Below the pieces are notes generated by a model. The model searched no databases. It was not told the DNA's origin and was given only the letters and a program-made list of their open reading frames with translations. A program made the position numbers and the translations under genes. From a virus (lineage: Duplodnaviria; Caudoviricetes), in IMG/VR virus record IMGVR_UViG_3300033067_000862, positions 1-35,190 of that record: a DNA stretch of 35,190 nucleotides. The stretch is one strand, 5' to 3'. Positions 5,635 through 34,836 of the stretch are shown one piece after another (position 1 is the stretch's first letter; each line of letters starts with the position of its first letter).

Positions 5635-5663
5635 TTGCGTAATATGGCGATTTGTGGCATCTT
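5635..5663 (+). promoter_or_regulatory. Candidate rightward promoter
   Basis: TTGCGT-17 nt-CATCTT with extended -10 TG; weak match. Confidence 0.35.
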
Positions 5664-5697
5664 GGGATGCGTAATCCCACCCGCACTGGAGTCTAAA

Positions 5698-7053
5698 ATG
5701 GCAGAATTAAAGATTAAATGGACTGAAAAAACGGCAAAATTGACCGATTTGAAGCCATATGAACGCAACCCGCGCAGCATCACAAAGGCTGCGTTTAATA
5801 AGCTGAAATCCGCGATTGAAGATTTGGGCTATCACCAGCGGATTATCGTGCAGCCTGATTTGCGGGTTATCGGTGGTCATCAGCGTATTCGCGCCTTGCA
5901 TGAGCTTGGTATTGAGGAGGTGACCATTCTCATTCCCAGCCGCGAGCTCACCACCGAGGAATTCCGCAGATTGCTTGTGCAGGATAATTTGGCCTTTGGC
6001 GACTTTGATATGGAAATCCTCGCCAATGACTTTGACAAAGAAGAATTGCTGGACTGGGGCATGCCGCCTGCGATGATTGACGCATTACCGAATTCGGTAG
6101 AGGAAGGCCTCACCGATCCTGACGATGCCCCCCCCCTCGAAGCCACGGTTATTGCCCAAGAGGGAGATGTATTCGTGCTGGGTGACCATCGCATCATTTG
6201 CGGGGATTGCACCAGCGCGGACGTGGTGCAGCGTGTTATGGGTAAGGCGAAGCCTTCGCTTATGGTTACCGACCCACCCTATGGCGTGGAATACGACCCT
6301 TCATGGCGTGAAAAGGCAGGCGTTGGCGGCACTGGCACGGCCAAGGGCAAGGTTTTAAACGATGACCGCGCAGACTGGAGCGAAGCGTGGGCTTTGTTCC
6401 CCGGCAACGTGGCTTATGTCTGGCATGGTGCGCTGCATTGCCCTGTGGTGGCGCAAAGCCTTGAAAGATGCGGTTTTAAAGTCCGGGCGCAGATTATCTG
6501 GGTAAAAACCAGAGCTGCCCTTTCTCGTGGGCATTATCACTGGCATCACGAGCCTGCCTTGTATGCCCAGAAGCCTGACACGGATGATGGATGGCGTTTT
6601 GGTGACGACCATGAGGTGGCTGCCTATACCGTGCGTGAGGGAGCCGCTAATGCAAAATGGCGGGGTGGCAGGAAGCAGACGACCGTCTGGTTTATTGACC
6701 ACATGAAAAACGACACAGGCCACGGAACCCAAAAGCCTGTCATGTGCATGCAGCGCCCGATTGAGAACAATTCAGCCAAAGGCGATTTTGTGTACGACCC
6801 ATTCCTTGGCTCTGGCTCCACCCTTATCGCTGCCCAAATGACAGGCCGTAAATGTATCGGCAGCGAATTAAACCCAGCGTACATGGATGTCATCATCCGG
6901 CGCTGGCAAAACTTCACGGGTCAAAAGGCTATTCTTGAAGCCACTGGCCAGACCTTTGAAGACCTTGAGACGGGCGGTCGTACTGCGAAGCCTGAGGCCG
7001 CAAGTAAAACGAAGGCTAATAATATCAAAAAGCCATCAAATAAGAAAAAATAG
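5698..7053 (+). CDS. ParB/Srx-like N-terminal domain fused to an N6-A/N4-C DNA methyltransferase (beta class)
   Basis: LKPYERNPR...IGGHQRIRA (ParB-like); TDPPY precedes YDPFLGSGST; HGTQKPV; start reassigned to ATG 5698 after GGAG. Confidence 0.92.
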   Translation: MAELKIKWTEKTAKLTDLKPYERNPRSITKAAFNKLKSAIEDLGYHQRIIVQPDLRVIGGHQRIRALHELGIEEVTILIPSRELTTEEFRRLLVQDNLAFGDFDMEILANDFDKEELLDWGMPPAMIDALPNSVEEGLTDPDDAPPLEATVIAQEGDVFVLGDHRIICGDCTSADVVQRVMGKAKPSLMVTDPPYGVEYDPSWREKAGVGGTGTAKGKVLNDDRADWSEAWALFPGNVAYVWHGALHCPVVAQSLERCGFKVRAQIIWVKTRAALSRGHYHWHHEPALYAQKPDTDDGWRFGDDHEVAAYTVREGAANAKWRGGRKQTTVWFIDHMKNDTGHGTQKPVMCMQRPIENNSAKGDFVYDPFLGSGSTLIAAQMTGRKCIGSELNPAYMDVIIRRWQNFTGQKAILEATGQTFEDLETGGRTAKPEAASKTKANNIKKPSNKKK

Positions 7054-12820: not shown

Positions 12821-13663
12821 ATGCCTTTAAATATTAATCAATTCCAACAGTCTACCGTTCAAGGTCAAACCGACCTTACTGGTTTTGGTGGCAATGTTAT
12901 CACCTGTCAGGTTGATGCGGCTCAGGCCACTGCCCTTGTTGCGGGTCAAGCTGTAAAAGGCGCTGCGACCGCGGGTGGCGTGCCTAAGGTTCTTGCCGCT
13001 GCTGCTGCAAACGACCCAATCTTTGGTTTTGTGGTTCGCAATCTTAAAGATGCGAGCTTCCCAGCTAATTCAATGGTTGAAATCGCATCATTCGGTACTG
13101 TTGTATGGATGACCGCAGGTGGTGCGATTGCCCGTTTTGGCTCAATCGAAATCGTGCCGGGCACCATCAAGGTTATTGCCAACGCAGGCGTTAACCCTGT
13201 TGCTGGTATGGCTCTTGATAAGGCGACCGCTGATAACGATCTCATTCGCGTACTGGTTCAGGTTCCATTTGCTGCTGCTGATGCCGCAAATCCTAACCTT
13301 GTTCAAACTGTCAATGTCACTGCGACTTTGGCCGAAATCAATGCTGGCAAGGTTTTAATCCCCGGTATCGCTGGTCAAAAAATCACTGTCGTGGACTACA
13401 CGGCTCGCGTGACTGGTGGTTTTGCAACTGGTACATCGGTCAAATTGCAATCGACAAACGGTGCGCCTGTTGATGTGACAACCATCGCAGAAGCTGGTTT
13501 GACCAATGGTGCAATTCTTTTGCCAGCAAGCGCAAACACCACCCTTGGCGCTGGATATGCCCAGCCCCTTGGCACTGCTGATGGCTTGAAGGTTGTGAAC
13601 GTAGGTGCGGCTCAAACGGGCGGTACCAGCATCGACTTCGCCATCTCATTCAAGCAAGTTTAA
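12821..13663 (+). CDS. Head decoration/cement protein with an extra C-terminal beta domain
   Basis: Between scaffold and MCP; Ala/Gly/Val-rich; strong SD AGGAG. Confidence 0.75.
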   Translation: MPLNINQFQQSTVQGQTDLTGFGGNVITCQVDAAQATALVAGQAVKGAATAGGVPKVLAAAAANDPIFGFVVRNLKDASFPANSMVEIASFGTVVWMTAGGAIARFGSIEIVPGTIKVIANAGVNPVAGMALDKATADNDLIRVLVQVPFAAADAANPNLVQTVNVTATLAEINAGKVLIPGIAGQKITVVDYTARVTGGFATGTSVKLQSTNGAPVDVTTIAEAGLTNGAILLPASANTTLGAGYAQPLGTADGLKVVNVGAAQTGGTSIDFAISFKQV

Positions 13664-15307: not shown

Positions 15308-15886
15308 ATGGATTTGACCACCATCACCATCGCCCAATTTAAGGCGCTTTTCTTTCGGGATTTTCCTTACTTTAGCGATATCCAATATGACGCAGCCGCC
15401 ACGTATAACACGGGCGATGAGGTCTATTATCCAACCACGAAGCTGTTTTATTCCGCGCTTGTGGATGGCGTGACAGCAACCGCGCCAACCGATGCCACTA
15501 AATGGGTAAAGGTTGCGGATAGTATTGACAATTACATTCAGGATGCGGACATCACCAAGGCGTTTGCCGAGGCTCTGGCCGTGGTCAATCAATCGCTTTT
15601 TGGTAATGACGACATCATCACCATGGCTTTTCTTTACATGGCCGCGCATTACCTATCCAATGACATTAAGGTGGCTATGGGTGGCGTTTCGTCATCGGCT
15701 GCATTCCCTATGCAGTCACGCAGCGCAGGCAGCGTCAGCGTGTCTTATGCGGTGCCTGAGGCCTTTATTAAAAACCCCATCTATGCCATGTATGCCCAAA
15801 CGGGATATGGCATGAAGTATCTTGCTCTGGCCATGCCAAGCATGACTGGGAATATGGTAGGCATTTGTGCGGATACCAACCCATGA
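15308..15886 (+). CDS. Head-tail adaptor (DUF4054 type) with an inserted CBM5/12-like module
   Basis: FKALFFRDFPY, YMAAHYL, SRSAGSVSVSY, QTGYGMKYL. Confidence 0.88.
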   Translation: MDLTTITIAQFKALFFRDFPYFSDIQYDAAATYNTGDEVYYPTTKLFYSALVDGVTATAPTDATKWVKVADSIDNYIQDADITKAFAEALAVVNQSLFGNDDIITMAFLYMAAHYLSNDIKVAMGGVSSSAAFPMQSRSAGSVSVSYAVPEAFIKNPIYAMYAQTGYGMKYLALAMPSMTGNMVGICADTNP

Positions 15887-16392: not shown

Positions 16393-16763
16393 TGTCGCGC
16401 AAGCCTTTAAATTTCAGCTCTGGAATGCCTCAGGTATCGGATGCTCTTAATGGCTGGGAAAGCCGCATCACGCTTGTCGTGCGCAAGCAAACGGTTAATG
16501 AATATGGAAGGGTCACAACAGACCCGAAGCCAGTCACATTTAAGGGAGTTATCCAGCCCTTAAACCCGCAGCAGATTATGCTTAAGCCAGAAGGTCAGCG
16601 CGCATGGCAATGGCTGCAAATTCACGCTGTATCTGGTACACTTGACCTCAACGTTAATGACCAGATTGTCTTTAACAATGTTGTGTATAAAGTGATGAAC
16701 GTAAGCAATTTTGATTTAAACGGTTACATCGAATACCACGCAGTGAATGATTACCAGCCATGA
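16389..16763 (+). CDS. Head closure / stopper protein
   Basis: GVIQPL...PEGQR...DQIVFNNVVYKV; position in the neck module. Confidence 0.78.
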   Translation: MMSRKPLNFSSGMPQVSDALNGWESRITLVVRKQTVNEYGRVTTDPKPVTFKGVIQPLNPQQIMLKPEGQRAWQWLQIHAVSGTLDLNVNDQIVFNNVVYKVMNVSNFDLNGYIEYHAVNDYQP

Positions 16764-17413
16764 TTAAACTGAGCTCAGAATACATTGTGGACATTATCCG
16801 GCGCCGGATGGCTCTGGCCATGGATCGCGTGGTGATTCGCAATCAGGACTTTCAAATCCCCCCGCTGCCCGGATTGTATGTTTCTGTTGGTATTGTTGAG
16901 CATATGACCATGGCGACCGCAACCTATATGCGCTCTGCAGTGCCTGAAAATTATGACGTTCCCGGTGAAACCTTTGACCAGCCGGGGCAGAATTGGGATG
17001 AGCCGAATCTCCCCCCGCCTGCCCTTGTCACCCAGATTGAGGTGAATCAGATAACCGCGCGCGAGGTGGTTCAAATTGACATCATGTCAAAAAATGATGA
17101 GGCCTTGGAGCGCAGCTGGGAAGTGATAGCGGCATTGAATTCAATTTATTCACAACAAATTCAAGAGCTAAATAACTTTAAAATATTTCGATTGCCACGC
17201 AGCTTTGTTGACACATCGGCTGCTGAGGGTGGTTCACAGCTCAAGCGATATACTATTACATTCCCGTGTTTCGTGTGGTATAGAAAAGAAACGCCCATGG
17301 CGGCTGGAGATTATTACGATTATTTCCGCCAGCGAGTGGATGATGAGAAAAGCATTGGCACCGATACGCCAATTATTGAATTTGATATTGATAAAGAGGG
17401 GATCGTGCCATGA
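16760..17413 (+). CDS. Tail terminator / completion protein
   Basis: Immediately before the sheath gene; VVQIDIMS; ATGA-coupled on both sides. Confidence 0.72.
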   Translation: MIKLSSEYIVDIIRRRMALAMDRVVIRNQDFQIPPLPGLYVSVGIVEHMTMATATYMRSAVPENYDVPGETFDQPGQNWDEPNLPPPALVTQIEVNQITAREVVQIDIMSKNDEALERSWEVIAALNSIYSQQIQELNNFKIFRLPRSFVDTSAAEGGSQLKRYTITFPCFVWYRKETPMAAGDYYDYFRQRVDDEKSIGTDTPIIEFDIDKEGIVP

Positions 17414-22557: not shown

Positions 22558-23420
22558 GCATTAAACTTGGGCGCAATTACCGGATAACGATTGACCCTGC
22601 CGATGGCGGTGAGGTTATTGTCATTACGATGCCGTTTAGCATTCAATTCTGGATGCAGCGCAACACCATGTCTGATTTAAACCGCTTAAGCATTGATATT
22701 TTCAATCTTTCAGAGTCAAATCGCGGCCGGATATTCCAAGACCGTTTTGACTTAACGCAGAATAAAACCATCATTTTTGAGGCTGGATATTCCACGCTTT
22801 ATCGTATTTTCAGCGGTCGCATCTATGAGGCCAACACTTCGCGCTCTGGCACTGAGTTAATCACCCGCATTGAAGCGCGCGATGGCCTGTATGATGTGGC
22901 GGCTTCACAGACCTATCAAACGCTGCAGGGCGGCCAGACGCTGGGTCAGGTGCTGCGTTTTCTTGCTGGACAATTCAGCGGCCTTGAAATTGGTGCGATC
23001 GGGGACTTCCCTGAAAAGCTATTGCGCCCGGTCGCCTTGGATGGTGCCACATGGGATTTGCTAAAACGATATAGCGACAATAAGGTTTATATCGACAGCG
23101 GGAAGATTTACGTCTTAAAGCCGACCGAGGCCACGGATAAGGAAATCTACACCATTGACGATGAGACAGGTTTGCTTGAAACCCCGCGGCGTGATGAGGG
23201 CTTTCTTTCTGTGACCACCTTGCTGGAGACTGGGATTGACATGGCGCAGCTGGTTAATCTGGCATCATCGGTGCAGCCCATCTATAATGGTCAGTACCGG
23301 GTTATTGGCATCAATCACAGCGGCATGATATCGGGAGCTGTAAGTGGCGAATGTCGCACGACCTTGAGCTTATTGGCTCCAAATAAGTTTGGCAAATTTA
23401 CGCAGGTACCATCAGGATGA
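22554..23420 (+). CDS. Baseplate hub protein
   Basis: IDIFNLS, IFEAGY, IFSGRI, TGLLETP, YNGQYRV...HSG. Confidence 0.83.
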   Translation: MSIKLGRNYRITIDPADGGEVIVITMPFSIQFWMQRNTMSDLNRLSIDIFNLSESNRGRIFQDRFDLTQNKTIIFEAGYSTLYRIFSGRIYEANTSRSGTELITRIEARDGLYDVAASQTYQTLQGGQTLGQVLRFLAGQFSGLEIGAIGDFPEKLLRPVALDGATWDLLKRYSDNKVYIDSGKIYVLKPTEATDKEIYTIDDETGLLETPRRDEGFLSVTTLLETGIDMAQLVNLASSVQPIYNGQYRVIGINHSGMISGAVSGECRTTLSLLAPNKFGKFTQVPSG

Positions 23421-24100
23421 ACGATATTGCCCCCACACTTAAACAGCCTAACCCAGCATCTTTAACCGAGCTTTTGGATGCCGTATCTCGTGAAATTCTT
23501 AAGACGCTTAATTGCGTTAAACCATGCGTGGTGGTTGAATATTCAGCAGGAGGCGCAGACGACATTCCGACTGCCAAGCTCAGGATTGCTTTTCAAAAGG
23601 TGACCTCGATCGCCAGCGATGGCACTAAAACACTGGCCGAGTACACCGAGCTTGTTTCGGTGCCCGTGTTTTTCATGGGTGGTGGCGGCTTTACCACGAC
23701 CTATCCTATTGCGCCCGGCGATGAGGGAATTCTTTTGTTTAACGACCGTAATATAGACAACTGGGTTCATTTTGGCGCTGGCCAGCCACCCGAAACTGGA
23801 CGGGTTCATGATTTAAGCGATGCAATAGCGCTGATAGGCATTCGCAGCATTCCGCGCAGGCTTGGCAATATATCGGCTACAGCCGCGCAGCTGCGCAGCG
23901 ATGATGGTCAAACGGTCATTGAGGCATCTCCCGGTAAAATTCAGCTCATTGCGGATGAAGTGGTTATTCATGCGCGAAATAAATTGTGCTATGATGCAGG
24001 CGGCACTGGCACTGTCATTCAACCGACTGTTATTGATAATTACACCACGGGCGTTCCTGTTAATCCGCATGCGCCTAATCCACCTCAGGTTCCATCATGA
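23417..24100 (+). CDS. Baseplate central spike (Gp138/GpV-like)
   Basis: VPVFFMGGGGFTTTYPIAPGDEGILLFNDRNIDNW, RVHDLSDAIA, QLRSDDG. Confidence 0.88.
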   Translation: MNDIAPTLKQPNPASLTELLDAVSREILKTLNCVKPCVVVEYSAGGADDIPTAKLRIAFQKVTSIASDGTKTLAEYTELVSVPVFFMGGGGFTTTYPIAPGDEGILLFNDRNIDNWVHFGAGQPPETGRVHDLSDAIALIGIRSIPRRLGNISATAAQLRSDDGQTVIEASPGKIQLIADEVVIHARNKLCYDAGGTGTVIQPTVIDNYTTGVPVNPHAPNPPQVPS

Positions 24101-24450
24101 TTTTTCGCAACCTTGACGCAAATGGTGACTGGCAATTCGGGCAGGGCTTGCAAAGCTATGTTTCGGGCGTGGAGGCTATCGGCCTGAACATAAAAACCAG
24201 AATCTTAAGCTGGGTTGGCGATTGTTTCTTTGACATCAAAGCAGGAATCGACTGGACGAACCGTTTGAGCCTGAAAAATCAAAAGAAGCTACTGGATGCC
24301 GAGCTGCGGCGCATCATCCTTCAATCGTATGGGGTGACTGCCATCACGAGTTTTGATACGGTGCTCATTGGCCGAACCTACAAAGCAACCTATGCGGTCA
24401 ATACCATTTATTCCAAGGCCTACATTGCCAGCATTGAGCAGGAGATTTAA
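24097..24450 (+). CDS. Baseplate wedge / sheath initiator
   Basis: RNLDANGDWQFG, TRILSWVGDCFFD..AGIDW. Confidence 0.8.
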   Translation: MIFRNLDANGDWQFGQGLQSYVSGVEAIGLNIKTRILSWVGDCFFDIKAGIDWTNRLSLKNQKKLLDAELRRIILQSYGVTAITSFDTVLIGRTYKATYAVNTIYSKAYIASIEQEI

Positions 24451-24453
24451 TAC

Positions 24454-25653
24454 ATGCCCGATACATTTGACGCGAATGGCCTTGTCGTAAAGACCGCCTC
24501 TGAAATCACCACAGCCCTCGTGACTGGCCTTCAAAGCATTTATGGCTCTGACATCCAGACCGACCAGAACAGTCCTGACGGTCAAATGGTGGGTATCCTG
24601 ACACAGATGGCCGTGGATATCCGCGAGAAGCTCGTAGATATCAATAATGGCTTTGACCCAGACCTTGCCACGGGCGCAATTCTTGACCAGCGCGTGGCTC
24701 TAAACGATATCCGGCGTGCTGGGGGCACGTACACGACCCAGCCGATTGATATTGTGGTAAGCCAGACGGTTAATCTGGCAGGCCTTGATGATAATTACGA
24801 TGACCCGCTTGGCGTTGGTTATACCATTCAAGATGCGAATGGTAACAAATTCATTTTAATTGATAGCGTAACGCTCACGGTTGGCAGTTATTCCCTGTCA
24901 TTCCGAGCCCAGAAAATTGGCAGCGTATCGGTGCCAACTAACACCATCACCAGCTTTGTGACAATTGTCCCCGGAGTTACATCGGTCAATAATTCCAGCG
25001 CGGCCACATCGGTTGGCTCCGATCAGGAAACAGACGCCCAGCTTCGCGTGCGTAGACGCAGCTCTGTGTCGAATTCGTCCAGCGGCTACCTCAATGGTCT
25101 TGAGGGCAATCTTCAGTCTATCACAGGCGTGATTGATGCGGCTGTATATGAAAACTACACCGATACCGTGGATGCAAACGGTATTCCTGCCCATGGGATT
25201 TGGTGCGTGGTGGAAGGTGGCGCAAATACCGATATTGCGGATATGATTTATCGCAAAAAAGACCCCGGCGCCAATATGCGCGGCTCTGTTGCTGTTGTAA
25301 AAACCACCCCAGCTGGCCGCATGTTGACTGTGAAGTTTGACCGCCCGACCGCGACACCGCTTTATATTCGTTTTAATATCAAGACGACCGTATCTGGTTA
25401 TGCATTTAACACGGCATCCATCAAGGATTATATCAGCACAAATCTTTCCTATGACATCGGCTCCTTTGCTGAAACGTCATCTATCACGGATGCCGCCATC
25501 GCTGCTATTGCCGCACAAGGCGGCGGTGGCGTGCCCGTGGCGGTGCAGGTGAGTTCGGATGGCGTAACGTGGGTTAGCTATCTGGATGCGCTCACCTTGG
25601 CATCGCAGTGGACGGTTTCATCGGCAAATATCGCAATCACGGTGCTTCCATAA
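24454..25653 (+). CDS. Baseplate J-like protein
   Basis: SPDGQ, ATGAILD, GSDQETDAQLRVRR, YENYT...GIPAH. Confidence 0.93.
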   Translation: MPDTFDANGLVVKTASEITTALVTGLQSIYGSDIQTDQNSPDGQMVGILTQMAVDIREKLVDINNGFDPDLATGAILDQRVALNDIRRAGGTYTTQPIDIVVSQTVNLAGLDDNYDDPLGVGYTIQDANGNKFILIDSVTLTVGSYSLSFRAQKIGSVSVPTNTITSFVTIVPGVTSVNNSSAATSVGSDQETDAQLRVRRRSSVSNSSSGYLNGLEGNLQSITGVIDAAVYENYTDTVDANGIPAHGIWCVVEGGANTDIADMIYRKKDPGANMRGSVAVVKTTPAGRMLTVKFDRPTATPLYIRFNIKTTVSGYAFNTASIKDYISTNLSYDIGSFAETSSITDAAIAAIAAQGGGGVPVAVQVSSDGVTWVSYLDALTLASQWTVSSANIAITVLP

Positions 25654-26411
25654 TGGCCAGCGTTCAAGAAATCATAGATTATTACGTTAATCTGCTGATT
25701 ATCCAATATCACAACAAGCCAAAGGCTCAGGAGACCATTCGCCTGTTTGCCGATACCATGCTTGCCAGCGGTGTGATGCTGGACGTAGAGAACGGATACA
25801 ATCTGGACACTGCGGTTGGTAAGCAGCTGGATATAATCGGAAAATATGAGGGTGTTGACCGTTTTTATAAGGATTTTGATTTAACAGATTATTTCGGCGT
25901 GCAAACCTACACGGAACCAGCACCGACATTCCCTCCCCGCCATGGCCTGACTGATTATGCAAGCTATGACACCGATCCGCCAAAGGGGACGCTGAAATAT
26001 TCCGATATCATCAGCTTTAATGCCCAGCTCTTGGATGATGCATTCCGCACGCTGATTAAGTTAAAAATCATCCAGAATTATTCTAACCATGCTGATGGCG
26101 ATATTGATGACAGGCTTTTTGCTCTTTTTGGCACTGGCATATCAATGGAAGACCCGCAGAACATGCGGATTGTGTATTTCATCACGCTTGCCGAATCAGC
26201 CCTTATTGATGCCATCATCTATAAAAAGGTTTTACCGCGGCCGATGGCTGTGACAGGATTGATTGTCAGCGGAACCATCGGACTGGTATTTGGCCTCACA
26301 GATTATTATGGAGCTGCCCCATCCACTTTTGGTTATGGCTTTTCAACTTATGCCGACTATGATAGTTTGTCTGGCACAGTTTTAACTTACAATAATATTC
26401 AGGTGGCATGA
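25653..26411 (+). CDS. Baseplate wedge protein (DUF2612 type)
   Basis: LLIIQYHNKPKA, LDTAVGKQLDIIGK..GVDR, DDAFRTLIKLKI, LPRPMAV; start reassigned to the TAATG overlap at 25653. Confidence 0.88.
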   Translation: MASVQEIIDYYVNLLIIQYHNKPKAQETIRLFADTMLASGVMLDVENGYNLDTAVGKQLDIIGKYEGVDRFYKDFDLTDYFGVQTYTEPAPTFPPRHGLTDYASYDTDPPKGTLKYSDIISFNAQLLDDAFRTLIKLKIIQNYSNHADGDIDDRLFALFGTGISMEDPQNMRIVYFITLAESALIDAIIYKKVLPRPMAVTGLIVSGTIGLVFGLTDYYGAAPSTFGYGFSTYADYDSLSGTVLTYNNIQVA

Positions 26412-27298
26412 TGGCTCGTATTCCTCGCGTAACGCAGAAAATCTTTGCAGGCAGTGCTGTCAATAATGGCGTATTTGGCTCTGGGCAGGATGGCACAAAG
26501 GTCACCACAAACGACCTTGCAACCTTGATGAGCAAGCCAGCATGGCTTCTTGGTTGGGCTGCGGCTGTTTTAGGCGGTCAAAAATTCCCACCACTTGAAG
26601 AATTGCAATCATCGCTTTTTGTGCATTCGCAGCAGGTTGCGTATTTACTACAGCAAGGCATTTCAGAATATGACGCTGGCACCACTTATTTCATTGGGAA
26701 TATCTGCGTAAAGGCTGGCACAACCGAGCTTTATTCATCGCTCACCGACAACAATACAGGAAACGCTCTTTCGGACGCTTCCAAATGGAAGGCTCTGGTC
26801 GACCTTGGCGCTGGTTATGCGCGGTCGGGGGCAAATGCCGATATTTCAACATTAAGCATCATCACTGACTTATTTACCCCCGGCGCTGGTAATATCTTAA
26901 ATCTTCACAGCGACCAGTACATCGGTCACGTCAATCGCGCTGGCTCTGCTTTTGTTAAAGCAAAATTCTTGCCCGGCACGACCACCAATGATGGCGTGAC
27001 GTTTGACCAATTCCCAACCTCGACCGCAGCTAATTATGTCGCGGTTAAGTTACCCGGTGGCGTTGTCATTCAAGCATTCAGCGTTGCTTTTGGTGGTGCG
27101 CCCGGCGGCCAAACTGTGACCTTCCCTGTTGCGCACACCACGCGCGCCTTTGTCACTGGCGTTGCGGATTCTGGAGCAAGCGTGAATTCTGACATTGTTG
27201 AGGTTAGCGCAATTACCGCTACAAACTTTAATCTGTTTATGGGGTCAGGCGGCGCTCCACAGGCAGGGACTGCTTATTGCGTATCAGTGGGGATTTAA
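26408..27298 (+). CDS. Tail fibre protein
   Basis: YLLQQGISEYDAGTTY anchor region; ARSGANADISTLS shaft; C-terminal KLPGGVVIQ...TVTFPVA domain; no signal peptide. Confidence 0.88.
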   Translation: MMARIPRVTQKIFAGSAVNNGVFGSGQDGTKVTTNDLATLMSKPAWLLGWAAAVLGGQKFPPLEELQSSLFVHSQQVAYLLQQGISEYDAGTTYFIGNICVKAGTTELYSSLTDNNTGNALSDASKWKALVDLGAGYARSGANADISTLSIITDLFTPGAGNILNLHSDQYIGHVNRAGSAFVKAKFLPGTTTNDGVTFDQFPTSTAANYVAVKLPGGVVIQAFSVAFGGAPGGQTVTFPVAHTTRAFVTGVADSGASVNSDIVEVSAITATNFNLFMGSGGAPQAGTAYCVSVGI

Positions 27299-27301
27299 AA
27301 C

Positions 27302-27847
27302 ATGACCAAGTTTTATTCAAAAGAAACAGGCGGCTTTTACGATACAGCATTCCATGGCGAGAAAACCATGCAGGTGCCAGACCCAAACTGGAAGCCAGCC
27401 ACTCATTTTGTGACGGTTAAAACCTACGTTCCTGAAAAAACCACCGAAATTATTGATGGCGTTGAGGTTGAGAAGGAAGTGAACGTTGAGGTTGAAGCTG
27501 AGGTTGAGCAGGAATTGCCCGATCAGCATGCGCCATTAATCACGGTTCCTAACCCATTCTGCACCATTCCATCGGATGCGGTCGAGCTATCGGATGATGA
27601 ATTCGCCAGCTCTATGAAGGGTAACCTTGAGGATATCAAGAAAATTGAAAGCTCAGAAGATGGCCGCCCCATGCTAGTTGACCATCCTGAGCCCACTGAG
27701 GAGGATAAAATCGCCTCACAGATTGCTGTGCTTCAGTATAGCATCACTCAGGAAAAACGCGACAAAGCAATATTTGACGATGAGGCTCGCGCTTGGCTTA
27801 AGGATATTTATGCGCAAATTGACAAACTGCGTAAAAAATTAAAATAG
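27302..27847 (+). CDS. Tail fibre assembly chaperone-like protein
   Basis: FYSKETGGFYDTAFHG...IPSDAVELSDDE...DGRPMLVD follows the fibre gene. Confidence 0.78.
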   Translation: MTKFYSKETGGFYDTAFHGEKTMQVPDPNWKPATHFVTVKTYVPEKTTEIIDGVEVEKEVNVEVEAEVEQELPDQHAPLITVPNPFCTIPSDAVELSDDEFASSMKGNLEDIKKIESSEDGRPMLVDHPEPTEEDKIASQIAVLQYSITQEKRDKAIFDDEARAWLKDIYAQIDKLRKKLK

Positions 27848-27855
27848 GGGTCATC

Positions 27856-29853
27856 ATGAAAAAGATTAGCTGGCTTGGCCTTGTTGCAATTATGGCCTGC
27901 CTTGCGCTGCCTGCTTTTGCGGTAACGCCAACCTCGACCGTCAACCCCAATGCTCCAGCACAGAATTCCGCGCTTTCATCGGCAACGCTGCGCGCTAATT
28001 TTCTTGCTGCATACAACGATATTAATGCGCTTTGGACATCTATTTATTCGGGCGTTGGAAATGTTGTGTCATCGGTATTCGGTCGCACTGGAGCTATCAC
28101 AGCCCAATATGGCGATTATTCGTTCAGCCAAATATCAGGCACAAATCCGATCGCACAAGGCGGTACTGGGCAAACCAACCAGCAGGCCGCCATCAACGCT
28201 TTAACTGGCAGCCAATCATCCGGGAAATATTTACGCAGTGATGGCACAAATGCGGCTCTATCATCTATTTTGGCTGCGGACGTGCCAACATTAAACCAGA
28301 ACACCACTGGAACCGCAGCAAATATCACCGCATCATCTAATTCATCACTGACAACCCTCCCTTCTTTATCACTGCCATATTCCCAATTAACTGGGGTTCC
28401 GGTGACGGGTGTATCAAGTGTATTTTCACGTAGTGGCGCAGTAACTGCGCAAAGCGGCGATTATTCTGTCGGTCAAGTAACGGGCGCTGCCCCTATCGCA
28501 TCGCCAACATTTACCGGAACCATCACCACGCCAGCGGCTCGCATCTCTGGTTTTTCAGCGGCTGGAATTGTTTCTAATGATTCCTCTGGTAATCTCACAA
28601 CCACCCCAAGGTGCAGCCTTAATCAATTTGCATTTATTGGCGATAGCAGATTGGCGCAAGTCACCGTTACAAACCCACCACAAAGCCCAAGATTTAACGG
28701 ATACCACTGGTTCACATTAGCCAATAATTTAATTGGCAATCGGATGTTTTTACCATCAGGAAACATTCAGGCTTTATCTGGGTTGCGCTCAGACCAATAC
28801 ACGGCTTCGATATATACAACGCCAGTTTATGCAAGCAACGCCTGCAATCTCATAATTTATGGTGCAGTTAATGATATAGGGCAGAATTACCCCACTGCAG
28901 GAACATCAGGTTCAACTGCTTACGCCAACATTAAGGCTGTTGCGGATGTGTGGACTTCAATGGGGCGGCGCGTAATTCTTCCAACCGAAACCGGGGCAAC
29001 AAGCCAAGCTGGGAATTCTACGCAGGTGGGGCAAACAGCAGTATTTAATAGATTAATTCGTCAATATTGCACTGAAAACCCTAATTGCGTTTTGTTTGAT
29101 GTTGCTGGGGTTTTTATGGATCCAACCCAGACCATGGCGTTTCGCACAAACGTGTCTGGAGATGGCGTTCATCCAAATCTTGTAGGTGGAGTGCTGGCAG
29201 GCGGTCGTGCTTTTGCGCAACTCATGGCTCCATTGGTGCCTGCGTATGGCGGATTAGTGACCACACCCGGAGAGGTTTTTGCCAATGGCGGCGTTCAGTG
29301 GTTCCCAAATCCAACATTTCAAACCACCACAGGTGGTAACTGTGTCACCACGGCAAATTTAACAGTCAGCGGCTCCCAGCCTCTTGGCATAACTTCATGC
29401 TCTGCTGACGTATCTGGCTCGACCCTCACATCAAGCATTGCTGCAGGAGCTTATGGTAATGACTGGGTTCTTGCCATGTCCATGCCGTCAGGTGGGCGAT
29501 TGCATATTCAAATGGATTTAACCAGCATCGGCACCGAAAATCCCGGCGATATTTTTACTGCAAATGCCGAGTATGATGTGGCGGCTGGAGCCACTAATTT
29601 TCAAGGATGCAGCTTTCAATTTGAGAGCAACCGGAATGCCAGCACTACTTTTACAATATCGAATTACGAAACCACATCGAATGGTTTTTTTGATAGCACT
29701 GCTAAAACCTTTCAAATCCAAAGCCCGCCACTTACGGTGCAAACCGGAACCCGCGGCTGGTTAACGAATTATCTTGATTGTTATTTCAGCGGCGCTGGCA
29801 GTGCCACCATCAATTTGCGCCGGGTGGGAATTTGGCGTAGGCAGGCTTCATAG
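27856..29853 (+). CDS. Signal-peptide-bearing fibre/spike-like protein with SGNH esterase and C-terminal beta-sandwich
   Basis: Signal MKKISWLGLVAIMACLALPAFA; fibre motifs VSSVFxRxGAxTAQxGDYS (twice), PIAQGGTG, APIASPTFTG; SGNH blocks FIGDS, GAVND, DGVHPN. Confidence 0.85.
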   Translation: MKKISWLGLVAIMACLALPAFAVTPTSTVNPNAPAQNSALSSATLRANFLAAYNDINALWTSIYSGVGNVVSSVFGRTGAITAQYGDYSFSQISGTNPIAQGGTGQTNQQAAINALTGSQSSGKYLRSDGTNAALSSILAADVPTLNQNTTGTAANITASSNSSLTTLPSLSLPYSQLTGVPVTGVSSVFSRSGAVTAQSGDYSVGQVTGAAPIASPTFTGTITTPAARISGFSAAGIVSNDSSGNLTTTPRCSLNQFAFIGDSRLAQVTVTNPPQSPRFNGYHWFTLANNLIGNRMFLPSGNIQALSGLRSDQYTASIYTTPVYASNACNLIIYGAVNDIGQNYPTAGTSGSTAYANIKAVADVWTSMGRRVILPTETGATSQAGNSTQVGQTAVFNRLIRQYCTENPNCVLFDVAGVFMDPTQTMAFRTNVSGDGVHPNLVGGVLAGGRAFAQLMAPLVPAYGGLVTTPGEVFANGGVQWFPNPTFQTTTGGNCVTTANLTVSGSQPLGITSCSADVSGSTLTSSIAAGAYGNDWVLAMSMPSGGRLHIQMDLTSIGTENPGDIFTANAEYDVAAGATNFQGCSFQFESNRNASTTFTISNYETTSNGFFDSTAKTFQIQSPPLTVQTGTRGWLTNYLDCYFSGAGSATINLRRVGIWRRQAS

Positions 29854-29862
29854 GGGATTGGC

Positions 29863-31008
29863 ATGAAAAACTTTTTTATCGGATTACTTTTTTGTTTATC
29901 TCCAGCGTTTCTGCTTGCTGCACCTGTTGACCAGTACATCGACCCAACGGGCGCAATCCAGATTCTACAGCCATCGAATTCGCTTTATTCCCCCAATGGC
30001 ATAAGCCTGACATCCCGTGCTGCACCCGGCGCTGGTACATTGGCGGCATCGACTGTATCCGCCTCCACTGGCATCACAACAGGCACGCTTTCTGTCTCTG
30101 GCACTCTCAGTGGCGCAGGCATATCAACCTACCTTGCATCGCCACCTGCGATTGGTGGCACTGCAGCAGCAGCTGGTAGTTTTACTACTTTAAATGCTAC
30201 ACAAAGCATTATTACTACCACTTCAGGAGGAACACCTTTTTGTGCAGGTTTAAGTGGTTGCACAAGCCCTCTATTTACCATGACCTTAAATGGTACTGGC
30301 GGTACTACTTTAAATATGCAGTCTCGGCCTGCAGGTAATGGCACCCTTTTTAGTTTTGGGTCTAGCAATACCGATGAAGGAGCAATCCTTTTATCAAAAG
30401 GCGCTGGTAATATAACCATTCAAAACAATAGCTCAGTATCAAATAACTCTGCACCTACTTTTGTAATAAATAACTCTGATAATACTTCTGGAGCTGGGAC
30501 TTCGACCTCTATTCGACACGGCGGGCGCGACATAGGCATCTTGTCTTGCTTTTCGGAAGATACCAGCACATTAACCGGAAACTGTTCTTTTTTTGCGTTT
30601 AATGCTGGCACAGCCACGCGGGCTTGGCGCGCTGATAAAAGTGGTAATGTTGGAATTAAAGCAAGTATTGGGGCACCGCAGGCATCTCTTGATGTTCAGG
30701 GAGGTCAGTTTTTAGTGCGCGGCGGTAGCGCCCCTACTATATCTTCATGTGGCACTTCACCTGTTGCGCCATCCGGATCGGATGCATCCTTTACATTTAC
30801 TTCTGGAAGTGGCGCTCTAACGTCTTGTGTTATTAATTTTGGCACCACATGGCTCACTGCACCAAAGACATGTCACCTTCAGCCAATGAATGCCGCGGCG
30901 GCATTGCAACAAACCACGGGTGCATATGTTTCTGGTATAAGCACGACCCAATTAACCATCACCGGACTTAATCTCACCAGCGTTGCTTATGGCGTTAAAT
31001 GTCACTGA
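29863..31008 (+). CDS. Signal-peptide-bearing fibre-like protein
   Basis: Signal MKNFFIGLLFCLSPAFLLA; S/T/G-rich; SPPAIGGTAAAAGSFTTL, GNVGI...PQASLDVQG; Cys-rich C-terminal domain. Confidence 0.8.
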   Translation: MKNFFIGLLFCLSPAFLLAAPVDQYIDPTGAIQILQPSNSLYSPNGISLTSRAAPGAGTLAASTVSASTGITTGTLSVSGTLSGAGISTYLASPPAIGGTAAAAGSFTTLNATQSIITTTSGGTPFCAGLSGCTSPLFTMTLNGTGGTTLNMQSRPAGNGTLFSFGSSNTDEGAILLSKGAGNITIQNNSSVSNNSAPTFVINNSDNTSGAGTSTSIRHGGRDIGILSCFSEDTSTLTGNCSFFAFNAGTATRAWRADKSGNVGIKASIGAPQASLDVQGGQFLVRGGSAPTISSCGTSPVAPSGSDASFTFTSGSGALTSCVINFGTTWLTAPKTCHLQPMNAAAALQQTTGAYVSGISTTQLTITGLNLTSVAYGVKCH

Positions 31009-31026
31009 TATTATTGCGGATAAAAA

Positions 31027-31392
31027 ATGAAAGTTTTTGTTGAATTAATCAAAGACACGGTTATCGCCATTAAATGCTTTTTTGATTGGCCGATGCTCTG
31101 GACGCGCATTTACTGCACGGCTGCTTTGATATTTATCGGTTATCAACTAAATTATATAGCTGAAAAGAACAGCGACAGCGTGCTGCATCGCTCTCTTGCC
31201 GATGGCTACCAATGGCTTGGCATGCTGATTATTGCATTCTATGTTGCACCCAAGGTGTTTGATGTCATCATGGCCGCATTCGTCCAGATGCGGACTGGAC
31301 AAAAAGTTTCCATTCCAGATACGCAATCAATTAAAGAAACAAACGTTCCCGTAAAAGAAACTCAAATTTCAAACAATCCGCCAGCTGCTTAA
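31027..31392 (+). CDS. Two-TM membrane protein, holin/antiholin candidate
   Basis: Two hydrophobic helices and a polar C-tail; start of the lysis region. Confidence 0.6.
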   Translation: MKVFVELIKDTVIAIKCFFDWPMLWTRIYCTAALIFIGYQLNYIAEKNSDSVLHRSLADGYQWLGMLIIAFYVAPKVFDVIMAAFVQMRTGQKVSIPDTQSIKETNVPVKETQISNNPPAA

Positions 31393-31465
31393 TAATAAAA
31401 TCCTTATATCTCCGCCATGAATCGTGATATGGCGTTTATGTATGTTGAATTGACGGGGTCTGAAA

Positions 31466-31753
31466 ATGGGTGTAAATACCAAAAATCACGGCGATGGTGG
31501 CGGCTATTGTGATTGCTGCATTGAATTGCAACAGAGGGTGTCTAGCTTGGAAGCCTTTAAACAAACCCAAGAGCGAGATATTGACCGATTAGTCGGCTCT
31601 CTTGGTGTTACCAATGAGAAACTTGGCGCTGCGATAAATGTGATGACTGAAATCAAAACCACCCAGCGCATCACGCACGTCATAGCTGGTTTTGGTGGTA
31701 CTGCATTAGGCGGAGCACTGCAGTGGATTTTCCACAAGGTTGGCCTTTCATGA
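31466..31753 (+). CDS. Coiled-coil plus C-terminal TM protein (holin-associated)
   Basis: QRVSSLE coiled coil followed by a Gly-rich hydrophobic helix. Confidence 0.65.
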   Translation: MGVNTKNHGDGGGYCDCCIELQQRVSSLEAFKQTQERDIDRLVGSLGVTNEKLGAAINVMTEIKTTQRITHVIAGFGGTALGGALQWIFHKVGLS

Positions 31754-32355
31754 TCGCAGTTTCTTTTTCGTCACTTATTTGCGGACTTGCCTATCGCCTG
31801 CGCGGCGGCGGATTTGTAGCATTCCAATCTTCCATTTTGCCGCGCGCAATCTGGGGTGCTGTGATCGCTCTGGCATATTTTTTCACTGCCACTTCTCATT
31901 CATTGGTTCGTGACATTTACGCTCCATTGCTGATTTTTTTATCGTATGCCGCTTTGATGGTGCCGCATGCGTATTGCCAGAACATGGGGCGCTGGCCTGT
32001 CCCTCAAAATCGGTGGCCTTCATTCTTTATGCCCACTCTGGAGCAAATTGACTGGTCAGTCATGGTGCCGTGGCAGCGGTTTGTTTATGATTTTATCTGC
32101 ATGACTGGGGTTGGTTTTTTTCGTTCTCTGATAGCTTTCCTGCCCTTCCTGATTGTTCATAACCTTGTGGATGGCTCTTGGCCTGTAATTCAGGTTGTGC
32201 AGGCGGTTGCGGTGCTTTCGGTAGGTCAGCCGCTTGCGTATAGTTTTGGTTATCTAATGCCCATTACCATCGGCGGCTCGCTTGCCCAGCGCAGCACCGA
32301 ATGGGGTGAGTTCTTTAACGGTATGGTCTGGGCTTTTGCAGTGGCATGCCTATGA
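31750..32355 (+). CDS. Multi-pass membrane protein of unknown function
   Basis: About 5-6 hydrophobic segments; AYRLRGGG and TEWGEFFNG; ATGA-coupled at both ends (start reassigned to 31750). Confidence 0.75.
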   Translation: MIAVSFSSLICGLAYRLRGGGFVAFQSSILPRAIWGAVIALAYFFTATSHSLVRDIYAPLLIFLSYAALMVPHAYCQNMGRWPVPQNRWPSFFMPTLEQIDWSVMVPWQRFVYDFICMTGVGFFRSLIAFLPFLIVHNLVDGSWPVIQVVQAVAVLSVGQPLAYSFGYLMPITIGGSLAQRSTEWGEFFNGMVWAFAVACL

Positions 32356-32837
32356 CACCTAATCGAAAAGCCTTCCTTGACATGCTGGCCAAGGCCGAGG
32401 GCACTAGCACGGTCGTGGGCAGCGATAATGGTTATAATGTTTTGGTGGGTTCTTTGCCTAAGAAGCCTATGCTTTTCAAAGATTACAGCAAGCACCCGCA
32501 CATCTACAATCGCGCCTTAAATTCCACGGCGGCCGGGCGTTATCAAATCATTTTCTCAACATACATTCGGCTTTGCAAAATACTGAAAACCACCTCGTTT
32601 TCACCCGCTACTCAGGATGCCATGGCTATTGAGCTAATCCGGTCGCGTGGCGCACTTGCTTTGATTGATGCTGGTAATATAGATGCGGCTTGTGATAGAC
32701 TGCATGATGAGTGGGCAAGTTTGCCGGGCGGCTCATCCGGGCAGCACCAGCAGACCCTCTCGTTTCTAAAGACCGCATTTGTCGCTGCAGGCGGCACACT
32801 TTACGAGGCAACTCCCCATGTCAATCCAACTTCCTGA
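32352..32837 (+). CDS. Endolysin, lambda R-like lytic transglycosylase
   Basis: AFLDMLAKAEGT, GYNVLVG, STAAGRYQ, FSPATQD, EWASLPG. Confidence 0.95.
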   Translation: MTPNRKAFLDMLAKAEGTSTVVGSDNGYNVLVGSLPKKPMLFKDYSKHPHIYNRALNSTAAGRYQIIFSTYIRLCKILKTTSFSPATQDAMAIELIRSRGALALIDAGNIDAACDRLHDEWASLPGGSSGQHQQTLSFLKTAFVAAGGTLYEATPHVNPTS

Positions 32838-33225
32838 CCCATCCTCTGGTTTACAAAACACCATCAAAATTATCTCAATCGCTGCTGTTATTCTTGCTAT
32901 CGTTGCAAGTGGCGGCGCTTTGGTTTGGATGCTGAATGATGCTAAATCGCAATTAACCGCAGATGCCGTGTTAATCACAGCGCTGCAATCCCAGAATAAA
33001 ATCTGGGAGCAAGATGCAGAACGGGCAAATCAAGCCCTTAAAACTTTGAAAGACGAAACCCAGAAGCGCATGGATGATGCGGCTGCTGCGATTGCGGCTG
33101 CTGAAAAAGAGTCAAGCGAATATGCGCAGGCTGCTGCACGGATCACAGCTGAAAAGCCAATAGGAAGCGATTGCGCGGCCACAAAGGCTCTTTTTGATAC
33201 CTATTTTGAAGGGGCTGCACCATGA
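32818..33225 (+). CDS. Inner-membrane spanin (Rz-like)
   Basis: N-terminal TM, long Ala-rich coiled coil and a C-terminal Cys; follows the endolysin; start uncertain. Confidence 0.8.
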   Translation: MSIQLPDPSSGLQNTIKIISIAAVILAIVASGGALVWMLNDAKSQLTADAVLITALQSQNKIWEQDAERANQALKTLKDETQKRMDDAAAAIAAAEKESSEYAQAAARITAEKPIGSDCAATKALFDTYFEGAAP

Positions 33226-33482
33226 AATTGCTACCATGCCTATTTGCCTGCCTGCTTTTGGCATCCTGCGCTTCGCCTGAGGTGGTTTACACCCCTCAGC
33301 CTGTGAACGTGGCTGTCCCCGTTCCCTGCCACGTAGACCCCATAAAACCCCCGATTTGGCCTACCTCATTAATCTCTAAAAAAGCCCCAATGTTTGAAAA
33401 GGCACGGGCGCTGCTTTCCGAGAACAAATTGCGCCGGGCTTACGAGGCCAAATTGATAGCTGCGGTGAATTCCTGCCAGTGA
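33222..33482 (+). CDS. Outer-membrane spanin lipoprotein (Rz1-like)
   Basis: Lipobox LLLASC; Pro-rich VAVPVPC; terminal Cys. Confidence 0.87.
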   Translation: MKLLPCLFACLLLASCASPEVVYTPQPVNVAVPVPCHVDPIKPPIWPTSLISKKAPMFEKARALLSENKLRRAYEAKLIAAVNSCQ

Positions 33483-33503
33483 TGGCTTTGATGGTGGTGT
33501 GCA

Positions 33504-34290: not shown

Positions 34291-34836
34291 CTATGGCTTA
34301 AAGATGGTTTTTGTTTCTTTGGCACCGAAATGATACCATGCGCAGTTATCCATTCCGGCCGTGCCATTCTCCATCCACGACACGCGCCCGACCGAAACGA
34401 TGGCGGAGCAATATTTCAAGAACGGCTTGGCCTGCTTGGTGTGCATCCAGTCAGCATCAAACAGCAGCCACGTTGGTGCCTTTGCCCGGAACAGGTTAAT
34501 CATGTCGTGTAGTGCGCCCGTGCCATCTTCATTGCGTGACCATGGCGGGTTGGTAATGAAAAAATCCGCAGGCGGGAATTCGCCATCAAAAAACAGCACA
34601 TCGCGCTTAACAATGCCTTCTTTCTGTGGCTCCAGATCGCAGGCATAGACGCACTGGCCATTGTGCTTTTCCAGATGGCTTATCAGCAGGCCATCGCCTG
34701 CGCATGGCTCAATGAACGTATAACGCCTTGGCAGGTGCTTGAGCAGCGGCACGACCGCTGAGTATGGGGTTCGATAGTAATCCCTCTCTACCCGCTTAAA
34801 ATCGCTCCTTTTACCCATTCGGCTCTGGCTCGACAT
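34291..34836 (-). CDS. Small DNA N6-adenine methyltransferase
   Basis: DYYRTP, FIEPCAGDG (SAM binding), ITNPPW (catalytic). Confidence 0.9.
   Translation of the reverse strand: MSSQSRMGKRSDFKRVERDYYRTPYSAVVPLLKHLPRRYTFIEPCAGDGLLISHLEKHNGQCVYACDLEPQKEGIVKRDVLFFDGEFPPADFFITNPPWSRNEDGTGALHDMINLFRAKAPTWLLFDADWMHTKQAKPFLKYCSAIVSVGRVSWMENGTAGMDNCAWYHFGAKETKTIFKP

Follow-up and report, generated by a model that had tools for sequence, protein, structure and literature searches.

Why would a tailed phage that already encodes an ordinary tail fibre and its assembly protein carry, directly downstream, two further fibre-like genes whose products both begin with an export signal? The question is raised by the IMG/VR virus record IMGVR_UViG_3300033067_000862, the whole of which (35,190 bases, terminal repeats absent) was analysed here and is referred to as the window. 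Assembly of tailed phages is generally taken to be complete within the reducing cytoplasm. We postulate that the products of the two open reading frames (ORFs), ORF1 and ORF2, are exported and disulfide-bonded in the host periplasm and that they probably dock on the virion at lysis, ORF1 doing so through a short anchor behind its signal peptide and a loop on a leaderless structural protein. A preliminary description of the locus had pointed to two late-operon ORFs with signal peptides following the fibre and its chaperone; their coordinates and leaders were confirmed from the sequence and a heuristic, though the esterase head of ORF1 and a candidate partner 11 kb upstream had been missed. The features of the two genes are as follows.

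27856-29853, + strand: ORF1, 665 amino acids (aa)
27856..27921, + strand: ORF1 residues 1-22, predicted Sec/signal peptidase I (SPase I) signal peptide (from sequence; at the same position in relatives sharing the module)
27925..28035, + strand: ORF1 residues ~24-60, anchor module of a proline-rich arm and an amphipathic helix, likely trimeric (conserved mature N-terminus)
28057..28605, + strand: ORF1 fibre shaft repeats, free of Cys (short segments matched by most of the 120 listed matches; phrog_16348 at residues 57-96)
28612..29235, + strand: ORF1 SGNH/GDSL hydrolase (PF13472, catalytic residues, Foldseek matches)
29248..29853, + strand: ORF1 jelly-roll resembling carbohydrate-binding modules (Foldseek matches to such modules; Cys map)
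29863-31008, + strand: ORF2, 381 aa
29863..29919, + strand: ORF2 residues 1-19, predicted Sec/SPase I signal peptide (retained by the two full-length homologs)
29920..30696, + strand: ORF2 N-terminal segment and fibre shaft with four Cys (127, 133, 229, 241), no anchor recognised
30697..31008, + strand: ORF2 H-type-lectin-like fibre tip of ~100 aa (profile clusters, AlphaFold2 model, fold alignment, Cys co-variation)

Predicted export signals and paired cysteines

Leaders were called with a heuristic of our own, which combines a basic residue, a hydrophobic 9-mer and small residues at positions -3 and -1. Of the 33 late-operon ORFs it selected four, namely ORF1, ORF2 and the two spanins, and of 4780 internal windows used as control it called 32. 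The leaders of ORF1 and ORF2 both have a basic n-region and a hydrophobic h-region; that of ORF1 ends in A-F-A before the anchor, and the predicted site in ORF2 is aligned with the A-x-A of its two closest homologs. Export by the twin-arginine (Tat) route was rejected, as the twin-Arg motif is absent from both leaders, and so was a lipoprotein (SPase II) reading, since the leader Cys (C15 in ORF1 and C11 in ORF2) lie in the middle of the h-region and vary in position or are absent among homologs.

Each protein contains nine Cys, one in the leader and eight in the mature chain, and the ordinary fibre has two, as had been counted previously. The description of these Cys as lying mostly in nearby pairs was partly right, as two putative ORF1 pairs span 77 and 57 residues. 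All eight mature Cys of ORF1 fall inside the head formed by residues 253-665, where we infer disulfides 253-330 and 405-411 in the SGNH domain and 496-515 and 585-642 in the jelly-roll. In the ORF2 tip the putative disulfides are 296-322 and 337-380, and the pairs expected among its other four mature Cys are 127-133 and 229-241.

Cysteine content tracked the leader across relatives, the co-occurrence that the preliminary description had proposed to check. Statistics for the family of the ORF2 tip were drawn from the 150 listed of 1478 clusters: 139 of these start with Met, a leader is present in 114 of the 139, and the mature Cys count is even for 105 of those 114. Among the Met-starting matches of two full-length searches (n = 219), 25 had a leader (22 with even Cys; 1.17 Cys per 100 aa) and 194 did not (96 with even Cys; 0.31 Cys per 100 aa). 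The difference in even counts between the leader-bearing tip family and the leaderless shaft matches (105/114 versus 96/194) gave a Fisher p of 1e-15, which is overstated because the rows are related. In the 146 tips covering all four Cys columns, C296/C322 were invariant (146/146), while C337 and C380 occurred together in 119, were jointly missing from 24 and were discordant in only 3. All eight Cys of ORF1 were kept in its three closest leader-bearing homologs, a fifth leader-bearing protein kept only the 253/330 pair, and six leaderless homologs kept none or one of the eight. In a midpoint-rooted tree, the four-member leader-bearing clade (100/100) was nested among leaderless ORF1 homologs, which suggests, as far as a tree lacking a true root allows, a joint gain of leader and Cys. 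Export and disulfide pairing of both proteins, as originally proposed, are thus strongly supported by the leaders, the even Cys counts and the co-variation of Cys in these comparative data, and cleavage by SPase I with Dsb-type oxidation is very probable.

A candidate anchor module behind the leader

A profile built from three rows over ORF1 residues 23-70 matched 59 otherwise unrelated proteins of 178-1557 aa. The module lay directly after a leader in 56 of them, at the initiating Met in two and after a truncated leader in one, and the leaders of the 56 end in A-x-A-like sites directly before it. Thirty IMG/VR loci (some of them near-duplicates) encode the module, 25 with a leader and five at Met, and cleavage of the leader would therefore produce the same N-terminus as the Met end of the leaderless sisters. 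These loci lie in baseplate, neck and head gene clusters of viruses with myovirus- or podovirus-like gene content. The module had no family match and no relative in the PDB by sequence search; weak PDB matches of the module to a viral coiled-coil heptad were put down to a shared pattern. The N-terminus of the ordinary fibre, considered as a homolog, was unrelated on comparison. The post-signal segment had been suggested as a virion anchor, and its conserved position, the leaderless sisters, its co-occurrence with a loop (see below) and a weak structural prediction all agree with this, making the module a candidate virion-docking element.

A triple aromatic-aspartate loop as candidate partner

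A possible binding partner is encoded upstream, directly before the tail sheath gene.

16760-17413, + strand: leaderless carrier of the loop, encoded immediately upstream of the sheath gene; by gene order a likely neck/tail terminator
16952-16999, + strand: triple aromatic-Asp loop, YD-x5-FD-x5-WD, in an insertion of ~20 aa, the sole such motif in the window

The carrier had no family match, PF23961 included, and the loop-bearing proteins of loci L015 and L016 match the PF23961 neck terminator. In a post hoc count, a strict triple [WYF]D pattern was found in 17 of the 30 anchor loci, once in each (200 shuffles: mean 0.37, maximum 2), and in 0 of 12 other, mostly shorter loci; looser spacing added three anchor loci and one partial match. 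The loop is carried by at least five different kinds of protein (wedge, neck and others), and 17/18 of the carriers have no leader.

Two tests were independent of how the motif was discovered. In the first, the insertion of ~20 residues was absent from all nine homologs of the window's loop protein, and the anchor was found in none of ten related records, in which positive controls were detected. In the second, a converse scan with the DNA pattern for WD-x5-WD-x5-WD matched ~1400 IMG/VR stretches (some of them unrelated repeats), of which 120 loci were returned and 80, those with flanks, were searched with an anchor profile built without them. Anchor kin were present at 13/80 loop loci compared to 1/80 reversed decoys; all 13 were on the same strand and within 2 kb of the loop, seven started within 30 nucleotides (nt) of it, and 12 were leaderless. 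Eleven further loop loci had another conserved N-terminal family downstream, and the loop likely serves several anchors. Because so many stretches match and no sequence match to the loop was found in the PDB, the triple [WYF]D loop may be a general, unrecognised fibre socket.

The WD-x5-WD-x5-WD form (loci L046-L165) was common in phage structural proteins, often upstream of a gene whose product starts with a conserved arm and helix. At one locus (L091:9971-10072, - strand) the loop follows a hydrophobic, leader-like segment and the anchor protein is also leader-bearing, possibly marking a fully exported branch.

A predicted complex of an anchor trimer with the loop scored 0.58 against 0.01 for the best control; contacts agreed between runs at a level of at least 97%, and partner pLDDT (predicted local distance difference test) was at least 66. 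In a calibration unlike this job, 116/157 solved pairs and 2/215 mismatched ones attained the score mark, and scores that reached the mark at 0.60 or under came from 18 of the 157 solved pairs and from both mismatches. The prediction therefore lends weak support to anchor-loop docking, which was already likely beforehand.

Fibres divided between leaderless and leader-bearing pieces also occur. The distal ~300 aa of a leaderless baseplate fibre (L014/L020) match a leader-bearing protein of L026 with 39-41% identity, and its N-terminus matches short stubs in L024 and L036 (35-40%); the L026 stub, where the ORF call began late, was unmatched. In both L024 and L036, the stub is followed by protein with a leader-like N-terminus and a tail-collar domain. 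At L026:4164-5932, L024:3284-4776 and L036:8408-9921, the baseplate fibre is divided between a short stub lacking a leader and a distal portion that starts with a leader or a leader-like segment. Leader-bearing fibres are encoded among the head genes at L001:7620-10294 and L016:9553-14605; each is preceded by a small leaderless protein (110-125 aa), a possible capsid-vertex base.

A likely esterase head and a lectin-like tip

The bodies of both proteins had been described as built from fibre shaft motifs. In ORF1 this was correct for about residues 68-250, but residues 253-665 form an SGNH hydrolase and a jelly-roll. The hydrolase matched PF13472 at residues 260-442 (34.8 bits, cut-off 32.9), and its catalytic residues S264, G336, N339, D436 and H439 (Ser, Gly, Asn and DxxH blocks) were kept in 11/11 homologs; it is likely an O-acetyl esterase. 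The AlphaFold2 model of ORF1 had a mean pLDDT of 55.5 and was unreliable over residues 14-251, the anchor helix being at low pLDDT. Foldseek matched the model to the SFP21A fibre 9lna, 9d81 and 9d84 at E 1-2e-5 with low TM-scores, and the proteins matched included Moo19 gp82, B2 gp48/49, a mannan acetyl-esterase and several carbohydrate-binding modules, so that the predicted architecture corresponds to that of esterase tailspikes, with an SGNH and jelly-roll head on a fibre stalk. No relative of ORF1 was found in the PDB by sequence search, and a single-protein viral scan with the head gave no match. A search of GTDB with the head returned one, leaderless homolog, and a leaderless homolog in a Mu-like prophage (L002) sits after a fibre and chaperone.

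The ORF2 tip was modelled at pLDDT 90. Its fold aligned with the C-terminal domains of the Pam1 tailspike, R-pyocin fibres and AP22 gp53 at Z 6.0-6.8, below the tool's mark of 8 for a clear match (root-mean-square deviation 2.3-4.2 Å over 66-83 residues), and H-type lectins ranked just below these fibre tips. The tip had no Foldseek match at E<=0.001 and no Pfam match, and ORF2 had no PDB relative by sequence search; as a lead only, its look-alikes in the Atlas were viral fibre-like clusters. Its profile drew 1478 clusters, with the tip at the C-terminus in 130 of the 150 members listed. In a tblastn search of 50,697 records of cultured phages, the anchor region and the ORF2 tip were unmatched, and the ORF1 esterase head found only three distant matches in actinophages. 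A tectivirus-like virus, with a PRD1 P3 capsid protein and a protein-primed polB, encodes a leader-bearing fibre of 948 aa with the ORF2 tip (L010:4816-7662), and exported appendages may thus extend beyond tailed phages.

Genome setting

The window encodes the gene set of a contractile-tailed phage: portal, capsid, DUF3383 sheath, E217-like hub, baseplate J, DUF2612 wedge, fibre and fibre-assembly protein. ORF1 and ORF2 lie between the following genes.

26408..27847, + strand: ordinary leaderless short tail fibre and fibre-assembly protein, directly before ORF1
31027..33482, + strand: lysis cassette of holin candidate, endolysin, i-spanin and o-spanin lipoprotein (phrog_90 endolysin and Rz-like spanin matches)

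The ordinary fibre has 296 aa and, at its C-terminus, a weak match to Gp53-like PF21882 (23.6 bits, below the 24.9 cut-off); the protein encoded after it matches phrog_188. The holin candidate is putatively assigned from position and hydrophobicity. As the cassette combines an endolysin with a two-component spanin, the host should possess a periplasm. Genes around ORF1 and ORF2 are packed with gaps of 8, 9 and 18 nt, a consensus scan found no + strand sigma-70-like promoter in 26397-31125 (sites across the window being no more numerous than by chance), and the GC content of the two ORFs (0.47-0.49) equals that of the backbone. A reading of them as moron or lysogenic conversion genes was rejected on these gaps, the lack of an own sigma-70-like site in the consensus scan and the backbone GC. 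No integrase or repressor match was obtained among the window ORFs scanned. A contig from run X1 is identical to the window over 22746-33500, and X1 may be the source sample.

Other features of the window were recorded. Positions 1-195 hold a frame open at the contig end, which we take to resemble the C-terminus of an IS1595-type transposase and which may mark an assembly break or flanking host DNA. Three DNA methyltransferase genes (800-1936, 5635-7053 and 34291-34836) are present in this 35-kb phage, one of them fused to a ParB-like domain just before the terminase. The ordinary fibre (26666-26827) and the DUF4054 head-tail protein (15383-15544) have in common a module of ~54 aa (E 4.5e-5, phrog_6278), also visible in the relatives L043-L045. 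The head gene before the major capsid gene (12821-13663) encodes 280 aa, compared to 146-186 aa in the same slot of L043-L045, and its extra C-terminal part may be a capsid-displayed domain.

Proposed assembly and alternatives

We propose that Sec would export ORF1 and ORF2, that SPase I would cleave their leaders and disulfides would form in the host periplasm, and that both proteins would form trimers. The mature N-terminus of ORF1, by then equal to the Met end of its leaderless sisters, is likely to bind the loop, one trimer on three repeats. Because the loop protein is leaderless and the anchor leader-bearing, the partners would meet only after holin and spanin breach the membranes, and the fibres would join an already assembled virion only when lysis mixes cytoplasm and periplasm. 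Finished P22 tailspikes can bind tail-less heads spontaneously. Maturation of these fibres in the periplasm with docking on the virion at lysis seems to us, on balance, probable. ORF1 would then be a neck-borne esterase fibre that removes acetyl groups from a polysaccharide of the host surface, with the ordinary fibre triggering the baseplate. For ORF2, a role as a lectin-tipped fibre riding on ORF1 or elsewhere on the virion is finely balanced.

A number of observations weigh against this proposal. The anchor is missing from the closest homologs of ORF1, P0002-P0004 (77-81% identity in the aligned part), and in P0015 the leader is followed almost immediately by the esterase. No anchor was recognised in ORF2, and some tip-family proteins, of 120-135 aa, consist of leader and tip only (P0252, P0303, P0353, P0365, P0375). 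The loop was first spotted by eye in the anchor loci, one of its 17 matches (L042) is doubtful, and several of the loci are near-duplicates. Nine anchor loci have no clear loop; several are small fragments, but L040 is 86% complete. The independent anchor profile left 67 of the 80 loop loci unmatched, and only two of the ten related records searched for the anchor were near complete. Eight Cys by themselves prove nothing, as the eight of the P22 tailspike are all reduced (PMC3357383). The anchor-less ORF1 homologs, the lack of an anchor in ORF2, the proteins of leader and tip only and the position of both genes directly before the lysis cassette would suit free periplasmic factors, exported to keep them away from virions and released at lysis as soluble enzymes or decoys, which would strip or mask receptors on cell debris or biofilm so that progeny are not trapped, the anchor being a leftover trimerisation module. 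Such a role, likelier for ORF2 than for ORF1, appears unlikely overall, as it leaves unexplained both the loop insertion in a structural protein specifically in anchor-bearing phages and a baseplate fibre with an exported distal half.

The proteins might instead serve in the envelope of the infected cell or lysogen, as adhesins like the MAT fibres of Bdellovibrio or as periplasmic superinfection-exclusion factors de-acetylating the phage's own receptor. MAT fibres likewise join a signal peptide to a phage-like fibre (PMC10769870), and two Bdellovibrio-type MAT cell fibres share the ORF2 tip (P0267, P0272), so the same parts do serve cell-surface roles, a further point against virion docking. 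In addition, 4 of 16 anchor-bearing records contain a tyrosine integrase and two are proviruses. The other 12 have no integrase, though most are incomplete, and ORF1 and ORF2 show late-operon packing, no promoter-like site of their own and backbone GC, and lack a MAT_N domain, lipobox and membrane anchor, all of which make this role quite improbable. Lastly, the leaders could be non-functional, through a downstream start or lack of cleavage, so that ORF1 and ORF2 would be ordinary cytoplasmic fibres docking before lysis. Leaderless sister anchors beside the same loop indicate that the pair can work in the cytoplasm, and the signal calls rest on our heuristic. However, ORF1 has no Met between residues 14 and 296, A-x-A-like leader ends stand right before the module in 56/59 proteins, and even Cys counts and Cys gain track the leader; we therefore regard non-functional leaders as very improbable. 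Free release or an envelope role is more plausible for ORF2 than for ORF1.

Comparison with known systems

Esterase tailspikes of the Moo19/B2 type are taken to be cytoplasmic. The tailspikes of Moo19 (gp82) and B2 (gp48/gp49), with reported esterase activity, and that of G7C as cited in the same report are, like ORF1, appendages with an esterase head for acetylated surface polysaccharide; these tailspikes belong to N4-like podophages, unlike the window's phage, and the available text on them makes no mention of export (PMC11654681). ORF1 differs from the Moo19, B2 and SFP21A chains in its leader, paired Cys and anchor, at about 14-15% identity. Likewise, the ORF2 tip resembles at a middling score the H-type-lectin-fold tips of AP22 gp53, the R-pyocin fibre and the Pam1 tailspike, but its family has two putative disulfides and nearly always stands behind a signal peptide. 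For the docking itself, a precedent for a loop holding a trimeric fibre N-terminus is provided by phage E217, in which the helical trimer at the N-terminus of the gp46 fibre is held by a loop of gp45, a virion protein present as a monomer (PMC10329688). In contrast, the triple [WYF]D repeat of the window's loop is portable, occurring in wedge, neck and other proteins, and its putative fibre partner carries an export leader. MAT fibres share with ORF1 and ORF2 a signal peptide, a phage-like fibre and a similar G-N-V-G-I-type shaft motif, but are cellular genes with a conserved MAT_N domain of ~130 aa (PMC10769870), whereas ORF1 and ORF2 belong to a phage late operon. A reading of the two as MAT fibres was rejected, as NF053851 was unmatched in both and matched in P0267 and P0272.

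The p3 protein of filamentous phages is a Sec-exported virion receptor-binding protein with periplasmic disulfides, and it joins the particle at the membrane during extrusion. Along with spanins, whose disulfides are cited in PMC13412088, and signal-peptide endolysins (PMC8951688), it resembles ORF1 and ORF2 in being a phage protein that relies on the Sec machinery of its host and on disulfide bonding in the periplasm. Spanins and endolysins act in lysis and are not parts of the virion, and neither these nor p3 dock on a tailed virion at lysis. The papers retrieved, as far as their available text goes, concerned lysis proteins or effects of host dsbA (PMC3556154, PMC8951688, PMC13274417, PMC13001222, PMC13412088). 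Among openly available articles, our literature searches turned up none that deals with tailed-phage virion fibres exported by the host or with the loop described here. The parts are thus of known kinds, and it is the two-compartment assembly route that was not found described for tailed phages.

Implications

It is an evenly poised question whether the pattern is general. Completion of the virion would in that case be shared between two compartments in many tailed phages and in at least one virus of tectivirus-like type: receptor-binding appendages, stored in the periplasm as disulfide-locked trimers, would snap onto a portable triple [WYF]D loop at lysis, the loop having been transferred during evolution to proteins of the baseplate, neck or nozzle. 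In the window, the pattern can be tested directly on two short elements, the 37-residue anchor and the 16-residue loop. If it is true, progeny would be armed only on leaving the cell and could carry fibres from co-infecting phages or from neighbouring lysing cells. Disulfide-rich lectin and enzyme folds would be open to such phages, and their infectivity would depend on host Sec and Dsb.

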